DNA from: Collinsella sp.
GTDB taxonomy: Bacteria > Actinomycetota > Coriobacteriia > Coriobacteriales > Coriobacteriaceae
DNA: 64,000 nt
Reading direction: 5' to 3'
Assembly: GCA_018373675.1 (NCBI GenBank)
Contig: JAHAGQ010000010.1
Coordinates: 1,349 to 65,348, forward strand
Positions within the stretch are counted from its first letter, which is position 1. Every line of letters begins with the position of its first letter. The position numbers were made by a program, and so were the translations under genes. The notes beneath the pieces were generated by a model. That model did no database searches. It was given only the letters and a program-made list of their open reading frames with translations, and was not told the origin of the DNA. Of this stretch, positions 29,766 to 39,170 are shown one piece after another.

Positions 29766-29925
29766 GACCCTCCGCCGCCCATTCGACTACCCGTACCGCC
29801 CATCCGATTCTGTATTAAAAAACCCGCCAGGCTGTTGTAAAAATGGACATCAGCGCTACTATAGTTCCACTTGCACTTTGTCCCAGTGCAGTGTTTCCAG
29901 CCATTTTTATACTGGGGGTAATGAT

Positions 29926-30906
29926 ATGAAGGACATCACCATCAGCCGCAGGAGCCTTCTGGTCTCCGCTGGCCTGCTCGCGCTCGCCCCGCTCGCCGGA
30001 TGCGGCGGCAACTCTGGTTCCGGCTCTGCTGCCGCCGGTTCCGACTACACTATCGGCGTTCTGCAGCTCACCGAGCACTCCGCACTCGATGCCGCCAACG
30101 ACGGCTTTGTCAAGGCCATCAAGGAGAGCGGCCTTAAGGTCAAGATCGACCAGAAGAACGCCCAGAACGACCAGTCCACGTGTAAGTCCATTGCTGACAA
30201 GTTTGTGGGCGACAACGTCAACCTGATTTATGCCATCGCCACGCCCGCCGCGCAGGCTGCCGCCGGCGCCACGGCCGATATCCCCATCGTGGGCTGCGCC
30301 ATCACCGACTACGCCGCCTCCGGCCTGGTCCAGGACAACGACAAGCCGGGCACCAACGTCACGGGCGCTTCCGACCTCACCCCGGTCGCCGAGCAGCTCG
30401 AGATGATGCAGAAGGTCCTGCCCGACGTTAAAAAGGTCGGCCTGCTCTACTGCACCGCCGAGTCCAACTCCGACGTCCAGATCAAGGCCGCCGAGAAGGA
30501 GCTCGACAAGCTGGGCCTCGAGTACACCGATTTCACCGTCTCGAGCTCCAACGAGATTCAGTCCGTCGTCGAGTCTGCCGTGGGCAAGGTCGACGCGCTG
30601 TACTCCCCCACCGACAACACCATCGCCGCGGGCGCCTCGCAGGTGGGCCAGATCTGCAAGGAGAACAAGCTTCCCTTCGTGACTGGCGAGGAGGGCATGT
30701 GCATGGCCGGCGGCCTGTTCACCCTCTCCATCAATTACGAGGATCTGGGCTACGCCGCGGGCGAGATGGCCGTCAAGATTCTGAAGGGCGAGGCCAAGCC
30801 CGAAGACATGCCTATCAAGCACCTCTCGAGCAAGGACCTGGTCGTCGTCAAGAACGACGAGATGGCCGAGGCCCTGGGCATCGACCTTTCCGCTCTGGAC
30901 GCGTAA
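29926..30906 (+). CDS. ABC transporter substrate-binding lipoprotein (ABC_sub_bind-like)
   Basis: Signal peptide with lipobox LAGC (MKDITISRRSLLVSAGLLALAPLAGCGG). RBS GGGGG with a 7-nt spacer before the ATG at 29926; the track TTG start at 29878 is unlikely. Confidence 0.8.
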   Translation: MKDITISRRSLLVSAGLLALAPLAGCGGNSGSGSAAAGSDYTIGVLQLTEHSALDAANDGFVKAIKESGLKVKIDQKNAQNDQSTCKSIADKFVGDNVNLIYAIATPAAQAAAGATADIPIVGCAITDYAASGLVQDNDKPGTNVTGASDLTPVAEQLEMMQKVLPDVKKVGLLYCTAESNSDVQIKAAEKELDKLGLEYTDFTVSSSNEIQSVVESAVGKVDALYSPTDNTIAAGASQVGQICKENKLPFVTGEEGMCMAGGLFTLSINYEDLGYAAGEMAVKILKGEAKPEDMPIKHLSSKDLVVVKNDEMAEALGIDLSALDA

Positions 30907-31109
30907 TGCTATACGCGGCATGCGTCTAGAGCCCGTGCTCGCGCTTTAGCTGCGTTATTCAATATCTGAGCCACAGGGGCGGGCGCTGTAGACCGGCGTC
31001 CGCCCTGCTTGTTTCAGGTAAAACAAAACGTCTGTCCGCAGCTCTTCTATGCATTGTTACCGCTATTATGGTGAATCACGTGTCCACCCTATCCTAGGAG
31101 GTATGAAGC

Positions 31110-32033
31110 ATGCTCATTGCATTGCAGGGCGCCGTTTCGCAGGGCGTCCTCTGGGGCATTATGGTGCTTGGCGTGTTTATCACGTTCCGCCTGCTCGACA
31201 TTCCCGATATGACCTGCGACGGCAGCTTTGCCCTCGGCGGCTGCGTCTGCGCTGTGCTCATCGTCAATAACAACGTCGACCCGCTGCTCGCCGTGCTGGC
31301 CGGTATGTGCGCCGGCGCCATCGCGGGTGCCGTCACGGGCATTTTGACCACCGTCTTCGAGATTCCCGCGATCCTCGCCGGAATCCTCACCCAGATCAGC
31401 CTGTGGTCCATCAACCTGCGCATCATGGGCAAGTCCAATACGCCCATTCTTGCCAAGGGCACCGTGTTTTCGGCCGTCAGCAATATGACCGGCCTGCCGC
31501 AGTCCACCGTTGCCATCATCTTGGGCATCCTGCTCGCCGTGGCTATCGTTGCCATCCTGTATTGGTTCTTTGGCACCGAGATCGGCTCGGCGCTGCGCGC
31601 CACCGGCAACAACGAGTACATGATCCGCGCCCTGGGCGTCAACACCAACTCCACCAAGATGATCGCCCTCGTGCTCTCCAACGCCCTCATCGGCCTTTCG
31701 GGCGCGCTCATCTGCCAGAGCCAAAAGTATGCCGACATTGGTATGGGCACCGGTGCCATCGTTATCGGTCTTGCCGCCATTGTTATCGGTGAGGTGCTCG
31801 GCCGTCTGCTGCCCGGCAGCCTCACGCAGTTTAGCGTCCGTCTTGCCTCCGCCGTCTTTGGCTCCGTGGTGTACTTCCTTATCCGCGCCATCGTGCTGCA
31901 GTTGGGCATGGACGCCAACGACATGAAGCTGCTCTCCGCCGTGATTGTCGCTGTGGCCCTGTGCGTGCCCGTGGTTTGGGAGCGCTATAAGCTCCGCAGC
32001 TCCTACACGAAGGGGGATGAGGCAGATGCTTAA
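31110..32033 (+). CDS. ABC transporter permease
   Basis: 307 aa, polytopic, with branched-chain-type permease fold features. RBS GGAGG. The stop overlaps the next start (ATGCTTAA). Confidence 0.8.
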   Translation: MLIALQGAVSQGVLWGIMVLGVFITFRLLDIPDMTCDGSFALGGCVCAVLIVNNNVDPLLAVLAGMCAGAIAGAVTGILTTVFEIPAILAGILTQISLWSINLRIMGKSNTPILAKGTVFSAVSNMTGLPQSTVAIILGILLAVAIVAILYWFFGTEIGSALRATGNNEYMIRALGVNTNSTKMIALVLSNALIGLSGALICQSQKYADIGMGTGAIVIGLAAIVIGEVLGRLLPGSLTQFSVRLASAVFGSVVYFLIRAIVLQLGMDANDMKLLSAVIVAVALCVPVVWERYKLRSSYTKGDEADA

Positions 32034-32820
32034 GCTCTCGCACGTCAAGAAGACCTTTAACAAGGGCACCGTCACCGAGAAGCGCGCGCTCACCGGCGTC
32101 GACCTCACCCTAAATGACGGCGACTTTGTAACCGTGATCGGCGGCAACGGCGCCGGCAAGTCCACGCTGCTCAACATGATCGCCGGCGTGTACCCGCTCG
32201 ATTCGGGCGTTATTGAGCTCGACGGCACCGACATCTCGCGCCTGAGCGAGTCGCAGCGCGCCAAGTACCTGGGCCGCGTGTTTCAGGACCCCATGCGCGG
32301 TACCGCTGCCGACATGCAGATCGCCGAGAACCTGGCCCTCGCCAAGCGTCGCGGCCAGCGTCGCGGCCTTTCGTGGGGCGTCACCAAGGCCGAAAAAGAT
32401 GAGTACGTCGAGCTGCTCAAGCGCCTGGACCTTGGTCTGGACACGCGTCTCAACGCCAAGGTCGGCCTGCTCTCGGGTGGCCAGCGCCAGGCACTCACCC
32501 TGCTGATGGCCACGCTCACCAGGCCGCGCCTGCTGCTGCTCGACGAGCACACCGCGGCCCTCGACCCCAAGACGGCCTCTAAGGTGCTTAACCTGACCGA
32601 GGAGATCGTCGACGAGAACCACCTGACCACGCTCATGGTCACGCACAACATGAACGACGCCATCCGTCTGGGCAACCGTCTGATCATGATGCACGAAGGC
32701 CATGTGATCTACGACGTGGCCGGTGACGAGAAGAAGTCGCTCACCGTAGCCGACCTGCTACAGAAGTTCGAGGAGGTCTCGGGCGGCGAGCTCGCCAACG
32801 ACCGCATGCTGCTAAGCTAA
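32026..32820 (+). CDS. ABC transporter ATP-binding protein
   Basis: Walker A GGNGAGKST, signature LSGGQRQ, Walker B LLLLDE. ATG at 32026 overlaps the permease stop. Confidence 0.85.
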   Translation: MLKLSHVKKTFNKGTVTEKRALTGVDLTLNDGDFVTVIGGNGAGKSTLLNMIAGVYPLDSGVIELDGTDISRLSESQRAKYLGRVFQDPMRGTAADMQIAENLALAKRRGQRRGLSWGVTKAEKDEYVELLKRLDLGLDTRLNAKVGLLSGGQRQALTLLMATLTRPRLLLLDEHTAALDPKTASKVLNLTEEIVDENHLTTLMVTHNMNDAIRLGNRLIMMHEGHVIYDVAGDEKKSLTVADLLQKFEEVSGGELANDRMLLS

Positions 32821-32914: not shown

Positions 32915-33156
32915 CGCATATTATGTCGATAATCCGATATTCAACCAGACATTCTGGCTAAGGACTAAGGAAACTGCCATGAAAAGACCTCTTCCCCGTC
33001 TTGCTTGACCGCCGCACTCCTTACCGGCGTGCTCGCCGGCGCCCCAGCTTACGCCACCGCGACCGCCCCATCTCAAGTTATCGGCCCGTCCGATGTGATC
33101 GGACGGGCTTTTTGGTGGGTATCATGGTTGAATGATCATTAGGAGGTTTTCCCTAC

Positions 33157-33924
33157 ATGGAATTGTTTGAGCCGATTCTTCATTTCTTTGAGCAACGGTG
33201 GGTCCACAACATCATCTGGGCCGGCATCTTGGCAATAGGCACGGCAATCGCCACCAAAGTCGTTTCCAAGACGCTGCGCCACCTACTCAACCGCGACGAT
33301 AACCCGCTTCCAGCATCGAGCATCTTCATCAACATCGCTCGCGCCGTCATCTGGATGATCGGCGGCAGCTTTATCCTCGACAACTGCTTTGGCATTAACG
33401 CAAACGCGCTCGTCGCCGCTCTTGGCGTCGGCGGCATCGCCATCTCCCTGGGCTTTCAGGACACGCTCTCAAACCTTATCGGCGGCATGCAGGTGACCTT
33501 TATGGGCATCATCAAGCCTGGCGACAACATCGAGGTCGGTGGTGTATCAGGCGTGGTCCAGGACATCACCTGGCGCCACACGACCATCGAAGATGCCTGC
33601 GGGCAGACTATCATCGTCCCCAACTCCAACATCTCCAAGAACACGCTCGTGCATTTGATGCCCTTTGGGCGCGTAGCCGTCCCCGTCGCGGTGAAAGACC
33701 CCTCAAAATGGGCTTCGCTCGACGCACTGGCAGACGAGCTGACCAGCGCCACTAAAACGGCCGTCTCGCCCATCTCGGGTTTTGACAAGGAGCCGTATGT
33801 GCTCTTTAGCGAGATCGGCGACTTTGGCATTAAGGGCAAGATCATCTTTATCGTCAGCGACGACAGCACCACTTTCACCGCTGCCGACGCCTGCATCCGC
33901 GCCATCGCCCCCATCATTGCCTAA
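33157..33924 (+). CDS. Small-conductance mechanosensitive channel (MscS family)
   Basis: 255 aa with N-terminal TM helices followed by the MscS beta-domain pattern (GDNIEVGGVSGVVQDITWRHTTIEDACGQTIIVPNS). RBS GGAGG. Confidence 0.8.
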   Translation: MELFEPILHFFEQRWVHNIIWAGILAIGTAIATKVVSKTLRHLLNRDDNPLPASSIFINIARAVIWMIGGSFILDNCFGINANALVAALGVGGIAISLGFQDTLSNLIGGMQVTFMGIIKPGDNIEVGGVSGVVQDITWRHTTIEDACGQTIIVPNSNISKNTLVHLMPFGRVAVPVAVKDPSKWASLDALADELTSATKTAVSPISGFDKEPYVLFSEIGDFGIKGKIIFIVSDDSTTFTAADACIRAIAPIIA

Positions 33925-33960
33925 ACCACCACAAAGGGGACAGGCACCTTTGTTGTGGTT
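33924..33960 (+). terminator. Terminator hairpin after the MscS gene with a GGGGACAGG loop
   Basis: AACCACCACAAAGG-ggacaggcac-CTTTGTTGTGGTT followed by a T-run. Confidence 0.55.
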
Positions 33961-34016
33961 TTCATTCGTGGTACCATGGTTCATATAGTTGTTTAAACGA
34001 CTAAGGGAGCAACATC

Positions 34017-35933
34017 ATGGAAGAGGCCTACCGTCAAGCACGCAAGCGCGGCGAGCAAGGACGTCGACGCGCCATTAGTCAAAGCGAGTATCCGTACCTC
34101 ACGGACCTCGATAGCTTGGTTGCCCAGCTCCCCTTAGGCCAGCGAGAGAATGTCGGCCTGAGAGACATTCCGCTCGAAATGGTCGTCGGTACGGTTACCA
34201 AGGGCCGTCAGTCCGCCTTTTCATGCAACTTTATGCCCCTACTGCCGTTTGGCACCGAGTTCGCCCGCAAGTGGTCCAACCTCTACGACATCCAGGTAAC
34301 CGAGGGTTATCGCGACCCCATCATCGTCACCGAGTTCATGCATCGGTTCTATGTCCAGGAAGGCAACAAACGCGTCAGTGTCCTCAAATTCCTGGACGCC
34401 CCGACGGTTTCGGCCAAGGTCACCCGTCTCTACCCCGGCACATGGGATTCCGTCGAAAGCCGCCTGTACGGCGAGTTCTGCGCGTTTTGGCGCGTCTGCC
34501 CCCTATACGAGATCGAGTTCTCGCGTGAGGGAAGCTACGAGACGCTCGCCAAGATGCTCGGTCAGAACCTTATCGAAAAATGGCCGCAGAAAAAGGTCGA
34601 CTACCTGCGCCACACCTTCCTGCTCTTTAAGCGCGCCTACCTTCGCGCAGGCGGCGACCACCTGGACATTACGCCTGCCGACGCCATGCTCGTGTACCTC
34701 AATGTGTACAACCAGGACCGCCTGCTGGATACGCCGACGGATATCGTTGTAAACCGCCTGTGCAAGATTTGGCGCGAGCTGGTCATCGCCGGCAAAAATG
34801 ACGAGGACAAGGTCGATCTTGTCGAAGCACCGAGCGTCGACGAGGAAGAGTCGCCCGCCCAGTCCACCTCCGGTGTGCTCAACTTCTTTATGGGCAAGAC
34901 CGTCTACTCGGTGGCCAACCCCCTGCGCATCGCCTTTATCCATGAGTTCCCCTGTGCGACGTCGAGCTGGGACAGCCTGCACGACCAAGGGCGCCAGTAT
35001 CTCGATGAGCACTTTGGCGGTATCGTGCGCACTGAGGCGTTCGAGGACTGTCACGATCCGGATGTGTTCTACGCCGCCGTGGAAACGGCTGTCAAACATG
35101 GAGCAAACGTCATCTTCTCGACCTCGCACCGCCTGATGGAATACACGCTCAGGGCTGCCGTTGAGTATCCCCAGGTTCGGTTCCTCAACTGCTCTATCGG
35201 CCTTCCCCATCAAAGCGTCCGTTCGTACTTTGGCAAGATGTACGAGGCCAAGTTTCTCCTGGGCGCCCTTGCCGCCAGCATGGCGGACAACCACCGCATC
35301 GGTTACCACGCGTCGGTATTCGCCTCGGGCGCACTCAGCGAGATCAACGCCTTTGCGATTGGCGCCTCGCTGCTCGACCCACGCGCGCAGGTAATCCTCA
35401 CCTGGGGCGATGTGCCTGCAGGTGGTCTTGTCGAGGCCATGTACCGCGAAGGCGTGAGCGTCATGACCGGCGCTGACATGTCAAAGTCGCTCGAAGACCC
35501 AACGGCCTACGGACTCCACCGCCTGGTCGATGGCAAGGTTTCCGGCATCGCCATGCCGGTATGGAACTGGGGCCGTTACTACGAGCTCATCGTTCGCAGC
35601 CTTCTGCACGGTACGTGGGACGAGACCAGCGATGACAACCAAGTGCGCGCCGTCAACTACTGGTACGGCATGAGCTCAGGCGTTATCGACATTCGCTACG
35701 CTCCGGGCCTGCCTTATCAGACGCGCAAGCTTGTTCAGCTCCTCCGCAATGGCATTGTTGAGGGATCCATCAACCCCTTTGGCGGCGAGCTCCACAGCCA
35801 GAACGGCGTGGTACAGATCGAAGGCTTCCCTCCGCTGCCGAGCACGCAGATTGTCGAGATGAATTGGCTGGCGGACAACGTGGTGGGCACCATTCCGCAG
35901 CTCGACGATGAGCCGAAAGTCCCTGCCCTATGA
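34017..35933 (+). CDS. Cytoplasmic fusion protein: N-terminal ParB/DUF262-like domain and C-terminal BMP/PnrA-like nucleoside-binding domain
   Basis: 638 aa with no signal peptide. The N-terminal 270 aa contain DPIIVTEFMHRFYVQEGNKRVSVLKFLDAPTV, which resembles the ParB/Srx/DUF262 strand-[DE]G[QN][HK]R-helix motif. The C-terminal 340 aa align in order with BMP-family lipoproteins (IAFIHEF..SW, GANVIFSTS, EYPQVRFLNCS, GALAASMADNHRIGYHAS). RBS AGGGAG. Confidence 0.6.
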   Translation: MEEAYRQARKRGEQGRRRAISQSEYPYLTDLDSLVAQLPLGQRENVGLRDIPLEMVVGTVTKGRQSAFSCNFMPLLPFGTEFARKWSNLYDIQVTEGYRDPIIVTEFMHRFYVQEGNKRVSVLKFLDAPTVSAKVTRLYPGTWDSVESRLYGEFCAFWRVCPLYEIEFSREGSYETLAKMLGQNLIEKWPQKKVDYLRHTFLLFKRAYLRAGGDHLDITPADAMLVYLNVYNQDRLLDTPTDIVVNRLCKIWRELVIAGKNDEDKVDLVEAPSVDEEESPAQSTSGVLNFFMGKTVYSVANPLRIAFIHEFPCATSSWDSLHDQGRQYLDEHFGGIVRTEAFEDCHDPDVFYAAVETAVKHGANVIFSTSHRLMEYTLRAAVEYPQVRFLNCSIGLPHQSVRSYFGKMYEAKFLLGALAASMADNHRIGYHASVFASGALSEINAFAIGASLLDPRAQVILTWGDVPAGGLVEAMYREGVSVMTGADMSKSLEDPTAYGLHRLVDGKVSGIAMPVWNWGRYYELIVRSLLHGTWDETSDDNQVRAVNYWYGMSSGVIDIRYAPGLPYQTRKLVQLLRNGIVEGSINPFGGELHSQNGVVQIEGFPPLPSTQIVEMNWLADNVVGTIPQLDDEPKVPAL

Positions 35934-36640
35934 AAATCCTTGCCATAGCCGATACCGAAGAACGATGCCTTTGGGAGTGCTTTCGCAAGGAACGCTTTGA
36001 GGGAGTCGACCTGATTTTGTCCGCCGGCGATCTGGACCCGGACTATCTTGAGTTTTTGGTTACGGTCATCAACAAACCGCTCATCTACGTGCGCGGCAAT
36101 CACGATGACCGCTACGCACGTCATGCACCGGGCGGATGTATCTGCGTGGAAGACAGCGTGTACACGTACCGAGGGATTCGCATTGCGGGCCTTGGCGGGT
36201 CCATGCGTTATCGCGACGGCGCCAACATGTACACCGAACGCGAGATGTCCAAGCGCATGCGTAAGCTGTCGCGTAAGGTTAGGATGGTCGGCGGGTGCGA
36301 CATTCTGCTTACCCATGCGCCCGCCGCCGGTATGGGTGATCTGGACGATCTACCGCATCGAGGGTTTGAGTGCTTTAACACGGCGCTTGAGTCCTGGGGG
36401 GCCGGCTACATGGTGCATGGGCATGTACACCAAAGCTACGGTTACGATTTTCAGCGCGAGCGGCAGCATGTGTGTGGAACGACGATCATCAACGCCTGCG
36501 GCCATACGCAGTTTGAGCTCGACCAGACGCACTACCCCATCCGCGGCTGGCAAGCAGCTTGGCTCAACTCACAAACCATGCGCCGCGAGCTCAAACGCCA
36601 CGAAGCCATCGAGTCTTCAACAGCCAGAACACCCTGGTAA
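35930..36640 (+). CDS. Calcineurin-like metallophosphoesterase
   Basis: 236 aa with D..GD (ILSAGDLD), GNHD and GHVH motifs. The ATG overlaps the upstream stop (ATGA), which indicates translational coupling. Confidence 0.75.
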   Translation: MKILAIADTEERCLWECFRKERFEGVDLILSAGDLDPDYLEFLVTVINKPLIYVRGNHDDRYARHAPGGCICVEDSVYTYRGIRIAGLGGSMRYRDGANMYTEREMSKRMRKLSRKVRMVGGCDILLTHAPAAGMGDLDDLPHRGFECFNTALESWGAGYMVHGHVHQSYGYDFQRERQHVCGTTIINACGHTQFELDQTHYPIRGWQAAWLNSQTMRRELKRHEAIESSTARTPW

Positions 36641-36641
36641 C

Positions 36642-36680
36642 CACCATAAAGGGGACACTGTCCCCTTTATGGTGCTTTTG
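36642..36680 (+). terminator. Terminator after the metallophosphoesterase gene
   Basis: CACCATAAAGGGG-acactgt-CCCCTTTATGGTG followed by CTTTTG. Confidence 0.6.
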
Positions 36681-39094: not shown

Positions 39095-39170
39095 TGGCAC
39101 GCCAGGAAGGACTCGAACCCTCAACACTCGGTTTTGGAGACCGATGCTCTACCAATTGAACTACTGGCGT
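39095..39170 (-). tRNA. tRNA-Trp (anticodon CCA)
   Basis: Minus strand: acceptor stem ACGCCAG/CTGGCGT, discriminator G, CCA 3-prime end, anticodon loop CTCCAAA. Lies between rpmG and secE, a conserved position. Confidence 0.85.

Follow-up and report, generated by a model that had tools for sequence, protein, structure and literature searches.

A cytoplasmic ParB/Srx-fold and BMP fusion protein and its translationally coupled MPPED2-like metallophosphoesterase: a putative nucleotide-related module in Collinsella and other gut anaerobes

The DNA analysed here is a 64,000-nucleotide stretch of Collinsella sp. contig JAHAGQ010000010.1 (positions 1,349 to 65,348, assembly GCA_018373675.1), referred to as the window, and the element in question is a pair of genes on its forward strand. 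Gene A (34017..35933) encodes a 638-aa cytoplasmic fusion of a ParB/sulfiredoxin (Srx)-fold module, a linker and a BMP domain, while gene B (35930..36640) encodes a 236-aa MPPED2-like binuclear metallophosphoesterase. The two open reading frames (ORFs), already delimited in an initial annotation made from the sequence, are directly readable and overlap in an ATGA at 35930..35933 that joins the stop of A to the start of B, an arrangement typical of translational coupling. The pair is a new fusion architecture of ParB/Srx-fold modules with a putative nucleoside triphosphate (NTP) site. Our favoured reading, to which we assign a probability of roughly one in three, is that the two proteins constitute a conserved cytoplasmic module, encoded on the chromosome, which performs a housekeeping task in metabolism or signalling related to nucleotides and works as a ligand-gated NTP switch. 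The evidence argues for such a housekeeping module over roles in defence, transport or DNA partition.

The structure of the N-terminal module was predicted with AlphaFold2 from 88 sequences (predicted local distance difference test score 92.4, predicted template modelling score 0.86). Structure prediction followed by a Foldseek search had been set beforehand as the test of this part of the protein, which might have folded as something unrelated, and structure comparison of the model places the N-terminal domain of about 100 residues in the ParB/Srx fold superfamily. Over 220–230 columns, extending into the helical region with which Noc and ParB bind DNA, the module aligns to these two proteins at E 6.6e-5. 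The core of the fold spans aa 39-142 (34131..34442, + strand) with R64, E81, K85, E106, E115-R119, S121 and R137 invariant, and is followed by an acidic subdomain of aa 143-262 (34443..34802, + strand) that is all-helical in the model. The strand-[DE]G[NQ][KH]R-helix pattern from which the initial annotation had started reappears in the model as a strand at 110-115 and a helix at 117-125, with the loop E115-G116-N117-K118-R119 at their junction; the peptide VQEGNKRVSVLKFL corresponds to residues 113-126 of A. The invariant motif Y-V-Q-E-G-N-K-R-V-S-V (aa 112-122, 34350..34382, + strand) is, judged by its conservation, the model and the Srx alignment, the equivalent of Box II or the GCHR motif and thus a putative phosphate-binding loop. 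When the family profile was compared with PDB sequences using HMMER, Arabidopsis sulfiredoxin was found at E 0.92 with E-G-N-K-R aligned to S-G-C-H-R, and in this E 0.92 alignment K85 and N117-K118-R119 fall on the Srx lysine and on the C-H-R of the GCHR motif, respectively. The Srx lysine matched by K85 is the one that contacts ATP in the human Srx–ATP structures. Across 30 sequences diverging down to 35 % identity, R64, E81, K85, E106, E115, G116, N117, K118 and R119 are all invariant, as are S121, R137, E153, D222 and E254.

In one Atopobiaceae lineage (Parafannyhessea umbonata, P0054 at locus L082) an acidic, Gly/Ala/Glu-rich insertion of 24 residues lies between R137-x-x-P140 and Y151, directly behind the ParB/Srx core (alignment columns 167-199), marking an insertion-tolerant surface loop.

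The C-terminal part of A, aa 300-628 (34914..35900, + strand), is a BMP domain of the type I periplasmic-binding-protein (PBP) fold, assigned by Pfam and PDB sequence alignments to an AtzT-like subfamily. Bmp (PF02608) is the only Pfam match on full-length A, covering residues 305-486 at E 2.9e-16 and 59.8 bits (cut-off 24.1). In the PDB sequence search, residues 300-628 are collinear with the whole of mature AtzT (22-355, 6pi5) at E 1.9e-30, and the Brucella basic membrane lipoprotein 3s99 is matched over the whole domain at E 2.9e-26. The next matches are far weaker (Med at 1.1e-5, Lbp at 0.025), and PnrA was not detected at E <= 1. Where a BMP/PnrA-like domain had been proposed, the BMP fold is therefore confirmed over its full length, whereas the closest solved relatives are nucleobase binders, among them AtzT with guanine, rather than PnrA, which binds nucleosides. 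The guanine pocket of AtzT is built from Tyr45, Trp194, Ser97, Phe98(N), Glu165, Asn169, Asn218 and Asn220 (PMC6834077), and we transferred these positions to A by pairwise HMMER alignment, adding 5 to the chain index to reach the paper numbering. Tyr45 and Trp194, which form the aromatic sandwich, are kept as W318 (30/30 sequences) and W463 (29/30), and Ser97 is kept as S370 in 27/30, which suggests from the alignment that A has probably preserved a cleft able to hold a planar aromatic ligand. Specific to this family are N391-C392-S393 and R402, invariant in the same 30 sequences, and the near-invariant D487.

Protein A resides in the cytoplasm. No signal peptide, lipobox or transmembrane segment was found in A or in 87 homologues, as had been proposed for A itself when its sensor domain was called intracellular. 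The maximum 19-residue Kyte–Doolittle window of A, located within the BMP fold, reaches 1.33, the mean over 19 residues reaches at most 0.91 within the first 40 residues of the 87 homologues, and the N-terminus of A is charged and helical. Cytoplasmic domains of the type I PBP fold are classically allosteric sensors, as in LacI/GalR, and by this analogy the BMP domain of A may well be an allosteric sensor too.

The partner B is a calcineurin-like metallophosphoesterase by its matches to Pfam Metallophos and Metallophos_2, its five metal-binding motifs and its fold, in agreement with its first assignment. The motifs read D8-x-E10, G33-D34, G56-N57-H58-D59, H129 and H163-G-H165-V-H167, of which G33-D34, G56-N57-H58-D59, H129 and G164-H165-x-H167 are invariant in 46 homologues. 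Motif I (35951-35959) is equally invariant in these 46 homologues as D8-x-E10 in place of the canonical D-x-H, which implies that a carboxylate replaces a histidine metal ligand. One Chordicoccus homologue of B shows D-E-P-E at motif I in a local alignment.

The linkage between A and B is strict. Homologues of A with 620-690 aa number in the thousands and share dozens of invariant residues, from which we conclude that the pair is not a product of chance; the cluster of close homologues alone holds about 32,000 member sequences. At E <= 1e-30 the N-domain profile retrieves 439 clusters (50 % identity level), and the full-length ones nearly all have the same architecture, removing the concern that the fusion is an assembly artefact. 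Two kinds of search describe the genomic setting. A scan of genome contigs with the family alignment yielded 80 best loci, all from Collinsella, and therefore speaks to conservation within the genus rather than to breadth, while taxonomic breadth was assessed by separate searches for encoding contigs and by plasmid, phage and IMG/VR searches. In the 80 Collinsella species-level genomes behind these best loci A is 96-100 % identical, which marks the window as C. aerofaciens-like, and the order mscS-A-B-rplA is fixed, with 68 loci complete and the remainder incomplete; the sole Collinsella locus without B ends 5 nt past A. Wherever a locus reaches past A, B lies directly 3' of it, and 100 loci carry both genes at full length, in line with the proposed co-occurrence of phosphoesterase and fusion. 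B likewise adjoins A in Chordicoccus, Parafannyhessea, Olsenella and three Lachnospiraceae-like metagenome-assembled genomes; pairs from Erysipelotrichaceae and Solobacterium were recovered by searching from B; a Subdoligranulum record and a fecal contig, both at ~35 % identity, contain the pair; and all non-truncated IMG/VR loci with A carry B directly downstream. These lineages belong to Coriobacteriia, Lachnospiraceae, Oscillospiraceae and Erysipelotrichaceae, and what flanks the pair differs in each. The 4-nt overlap of A and B recurs at loci L081, L084, L087 and L091 and becomes 8 nt at L082, with gaps of 1-24 nt elsewhere and a single gap of 114 nt. Outside Collinsella the divergence of A and that of B are correlated (r 0.67).

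Among the longer homologues, P0249 (885 aa) and P0260 (820 aa) bear C-terminal Ala/Glu/Lys-rich tails of 170-240 residues that have no Pfam match and are probably coiled-coil, and P0248, in which unrelated hydrophobic sequence starts at about residue 550, is probably a frameshift or chimera. Among the lineages examined, only Erysipelotrichaceae/Solobacterium have an 80-aa ORF translationally coupled 5' of the fusion gene (L088 2816-3058, L089 2149-2391, L090 2826-3068); the versions from two genomes share 71 % identity, and the ORF shows a weak, sub-threshold DUF1858 match.

Put together as a mechanism, a ligand-gated switch could work as follows. Through translational coupling B would be made in a fixed ratio with A. 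A planar, purine-like heterocycle would be clamped by W318 and W463 in the BMP cleft, and closure of this cleft would be relayed to the ParB/Srx module. There, a pocket comprising R64, K85 and N117-K118-R119 would bind an NTP and act as a switch as in ParB-type proteins. The state of A would then control the phosphoesterase B, possibly within a physical A–B complex, or supply its substrate context, and B would cleave a nucleotide-type phosphoester. The pair may serve in signalling. A more novel version, which we regard as possible but doubtful, is a hitherto unrecognised cytoplasmic pathway of dominant Gram-positive anaerobes of the human gut. In it, the Venus-flytrap BMP domain, recruited from transporters, would gate or feed a divergent, NTP-dependent ParB/Srx module, and a signal or metabolite derived from a nucleotide would be produced or cleared by the dedicated MPPED2-like phosphodiesterase.

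Several observations weigh against the switch as formulated here. Pfam returned no match on residues 1-280, not even at E <= 10 and including ParBc (PF02195) and DUF262 (PF03235), whereby the original ParB/Srx/DUF262 label is borne out by structure comparison at the level of the ParB/Srx fold and not by the profiles; NCBIfam and PHROGs gave nothing usable on the N-domain either, and the Srx match at E 0.92 was the only one in the PDB sequence search with the N-domain profile. At the position of the ParB catalytic Glu and the Srx Cys, A has Asn117, which makes hydrolysis or phosphotransfer chemistry uncertain. The invariant polar residues of both domains, namely N391-C392-S393, R402, the near-invariant D487, E81, E106, E153, D222 and E254, would be as much at home in the active site of an enzyme as in a sensor. 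In the BMP pocket, Glu165 of AtzT is replaced by an invariant G438 and the sites matching Asn218 and Asn220 vary; as the polar residues by which AtzT reads guanine are not conserved, the ligand may be a non-purine, and the term "nucleoside sensor" used in the initial annotation proved too specific. No A–B fusion protein was found among the longer homologues. Finally, the loci examined have no conserved third gene, and neither such a gene nor a riboswitch gives a hint to the ligand.

In the main rival account, A and B would be a pair of metabolic enzymes. Like Srx, SerK or SbnI, A would be a phosphotransferase for small molecules that places phosphate from an NTP on a heterocycle held by the BMP domain, a nucleobase-, nucleoside- or flavin-like substrate, while B would hydrolyse or remodel what A has phosphorylated; the two steps would amount to a salvage or detoxification pathway peculiar to Gram-positive gut anaerobes. 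We consider this account possible, if on the doubtful side. Defence, a DNA-binding regulator and a transporter are all unlikely, and a substantial part of the probability stays with something else altogether.

Known defence systems include examples with ParB/DUF262 domains and with metallophosphoesterases, and a nucleoside- or nucleotide-sensing defence module had been suggested for this pair. A would sense a phage-induced nucleotide or nucleoside via its BMP domain and act via a DUF262/ParB-like NTPase-nuclease domain together with the phosphoesterase as effector. In PADLOC, A weakly matches six PD-Lambda-5_A models at E 0.003-0.035, and B matches the candidate family PDC-S10 over residues 1-190 at E 2.4e-16; moreover, 17 of 2.9 million IMG/VR contigs carry the A–B pair. 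However, the PD-Lambda-5 matches all fall within residues 97-134 and extend over 30-40 residues, which reflects a shared motif only, and the Pfam scan shows no HNH/DUF1524 nuclease domain. PDC-S10 is to our knowledge an unvalidated candidate, and the literature searched describes no mechanism for it. The pair occupies a fixed chromosomal site beside ribosomal protein genes in the 80 Collinsella species-level genomes, its residues are invariant across two phyla, unlike those of fast-evolving defence genes, and its neighbours in the contexts examined are ordinary housekeeping genes and not defence islands. The full-length "plasmid" records come down to a 900-kb piece of the C. aerofaciens chromosome and an unannotated 56-kb Subdoligranulum record, the only full-length "phage" match, on an UNVERIFIED fecal contig, is flanked by non-phage genes, and the IMG/VR contexts, with queC, clpB, asd and an integrase or IS30 at the edge, resemble host flanks. 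Fixed position, extreme residue conservation and the absence of the pair from genuine plasmids or phages thus argue against the defence proposal, which we regard as improbable.

The 900-kb record, C. aerofaciens "plasmid 6" (NZ_OY725717.1, 563269-577182, L093), carries rplA, rplK, nusG, secE, rpmG, tuf and asnS. Evidently this is a chromosome segment labelled wrongly, and it inflates the matches in plasmid databases. Similarly, MT836456.1 (L092, UNVERIFIED "Bacteriophage sp.") and several IMG/VR contigs (L094-L110) show an M32 carboxypeptidase-like gene, queC, clpB and asd as neighbours, and these contigs with the pair are probably host flanks or misclassified.

A further alternative is a ParB-like DNA-binding regulator, that is, an NTP-dependent clamp or repressor analogous to KorB, VirB, Noc or LacI that is tuned by the BMP ligand, with the BMP domain replacing the ParB C-terminal dimerisation domain. 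The Foldseek alignment to Noc and ParB speaks for it since it extends into the helical DNA-binding region, and so does the order of the domains, a DNA-binding module followed by a type I PBP sensor being the order known from LacI/GalR. The helical subdomain does sit where ParB has its DNA-binding domain, but it is acidic, with family medians of pI (isoelectric point) 4.84 and net charge -5, and Pfam gives no match in A to helix-turn-helix (HTH) or ParB C-terminal families. An acidic subdomain lacking an HTH signature makes ParB-type DNA binding unlikely. No parA gene was seen in the gene neighbourhoods examined, and altogether we find this regulator very hard to credit.

That the database annotation is correct and A is the substrate-binding protein of an ATP-binding cassette (ABC) importer for nucleosides or nucleobases, as its RefSeq name "BMP family ABC transporter substrate-binding protein" (B being "metallophosphoesterase") and the above-threshold Pfam Bmp match would have it, is effectively refuted: all 88 family members lack a signal peptide, lipobox and transmembrane anchor, a 290-residue domain of cytoplasmic type precedes the BMP domain, no ABC permease or ATPase genes adjoin the pair in the contexts examined (unrelated exporter-type ABC genes stand two genes downstream in Parafannyhessea only), and with A cytoplasmic, having neither a lipobox nor a hydrophobic N-terminus, the label is very unlikely to be right.

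In the window, the pair stands where it had first been placed, between an mscS-like gene upstream (Pfam PF00924/PF21088) and the convergent cluster rplA-rplK-nusG-secE-tuf downstream on the other strand, and its base composition is that of its surroundings. A Shine–Dalgarno-like AAGGGAG (34004..34010, + strand), read directly in the sequence, lies 6 nt 5' of the ATG of gene A; a promoter consensus scan found none, and no riboswitch or other RNA element was found 5' of A in 8 loci and the window. Of the terminators said to bound the pair, the downstream one is convincing: a perfect 15-bp hairpin followed by CUUUUGA (36642..36674, + strand) folds at -26.2 kcal/mol with z -4.95, none of 200 shuffles being equally stable, and serves as the intrinsic terminator of the A–B operon. 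The upstream one, 3' of the mscS-like gene (33923..33961, + strand), is a weaker hairpin followed by UUUUCAUUC (-18.2 kcal/mol, z -1.64), and its role in isolating the pair from transcription on the mscS side is probable but weak. A consensus terminator scan called neither hairpin, and both were folded directly instead.

Farther upstream, before mscS, a complete ABC uptake operon (29878-32820, + strand) encodes a binding protein (PF04392, ABC_sub_bind) together with its permease (BPD_transp_2) and ABC ATPase, and a strong 12-bp terminator (33083-33109) closes it. We considered it as a transporter partner of A and rejected it because this operon already includes a binding protein (PF04392) and is terminated separately; since the binding protein is already present, it is not the missing transporter of the BMP fusion. 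Between secE/rpmG and tuf there is a tRNA gene (39098-39170, - strand, Rfam 64.4 bits), a usual feature of that conserved cluster.

Public databases label the family of A as an ABC-transporter substrate-binding protein, a name that is probably wrong for an intracellular protein with a previously unrecognised ParB/Srx-fold domain. The pair adds a small-molecule-sensing architecture to the fusions of the ParB-CTPase fold that surveys based on PF02195 miss; if the more novel pathway reading is true, it would be a ParB-fold switch or kinase of a new class, one that takes a small-molecule input and is invisible to current ParB profiles. Its strict pairing with an MPPED2-like phosphoesterase translates into a concrete, testable hypothesis in which ligand and NTP lead to phosphoester hydrolysis. 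Since Collinsella, Lachnospiraceae, Oscillospiraceae and Erysipelotrichaceae all have the pair, whatever function it serves would concern much of the human gut microbiota.

The architecture appears not to have been described before. The literature search returned no paper linking ParB or Srx with BMP/PnrA proteins, and a dedicated 2025 survey of ParB-CTPase-fold fusions does not contain it either (PMC12704722). According to this survey, the ParB fold is a module reused via domain fusion with varied NTP specificity, which neither sequence analysis nor AF3 predicts reliably, and the fusion partners found from a PF02195 seed are HTH, HNH, UPF0020, methyltransferase, DUF3850/4417, CBS, ASCH and MT-A70 (PMC12704722). 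Bmp/PnrA or metallophosphoesterase partners are not mentioned in the accessible text and supplements, and as A does not match the PF02195 seed, the survey would have missed it.

Of the known ParB/Srx-fold proteins, sulfiredoxin, SerK and SbnI use ATP; A differs from them by Asn117 in place of the catalytic Cys, by having no Pfam-level match, by its 330-residue BMP fusion and by its coupling to a phosphoesterase. With ParB, Noc, KorB, PadC and VirB the N-domain of A shares the fold and the position of a Box II-like G-x-[KR]-R loop, but unlike the ParB-CTPase switches A has no HTH, no ParB C-terminal dimerisation domain and no ParA partner, and it carries Asn for the catalytic Glu of GERR. The BMP fold is collinear with AtzT and Brucella 3s99, PnrA and BmpD being more distant, and keeps the aromatic sandwich and the Ser97 equivalent (W318, W463 and S370). 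In contrast to AtzT and 3s99, A is cytoplasmic, has no dedicated ABC importer next to it and does not conserve Glu165, Asn218 and Asn220; relative to AtzT it has gained the invariant N391-C392-S393 and R402 and the near-invariant D487, with Gly438 at the Glu165 site. Closest to B among known proteins are MPPED2, a mammalian class III-like cyclic-nucleotide metallophosphodiesterase, and the bacterial aq_1956, TT1561 and PptH, from which B is set apart by an identity of ~21 %, a motif I of D-x-E rather than D-x-H and its obligate operon partnership with a ParB/Srx-BMP protein. The likeness of A to PD-Lambda-5 subunit A is confined to the motif level (residues 97-134), and PDC-S10 resembles B; the matches of A are short and marginal, and unlike these systems the pair behaves in genomes like core genes and not like a defence island. 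As functional analogues rather than homologues, the LacI/GalR proteins likewise fuse a cytoplasmic sensor domain to an effector or switch. Archaeal ParB-CBS fusions, as presented in the survey, offer a second functional analogue with a ligand-sensing domain on a ParB fold (PMC12704722). Compared with both, the partner domains of A are different, and its output appears to be a phosphoesterase instead of DNA binding.

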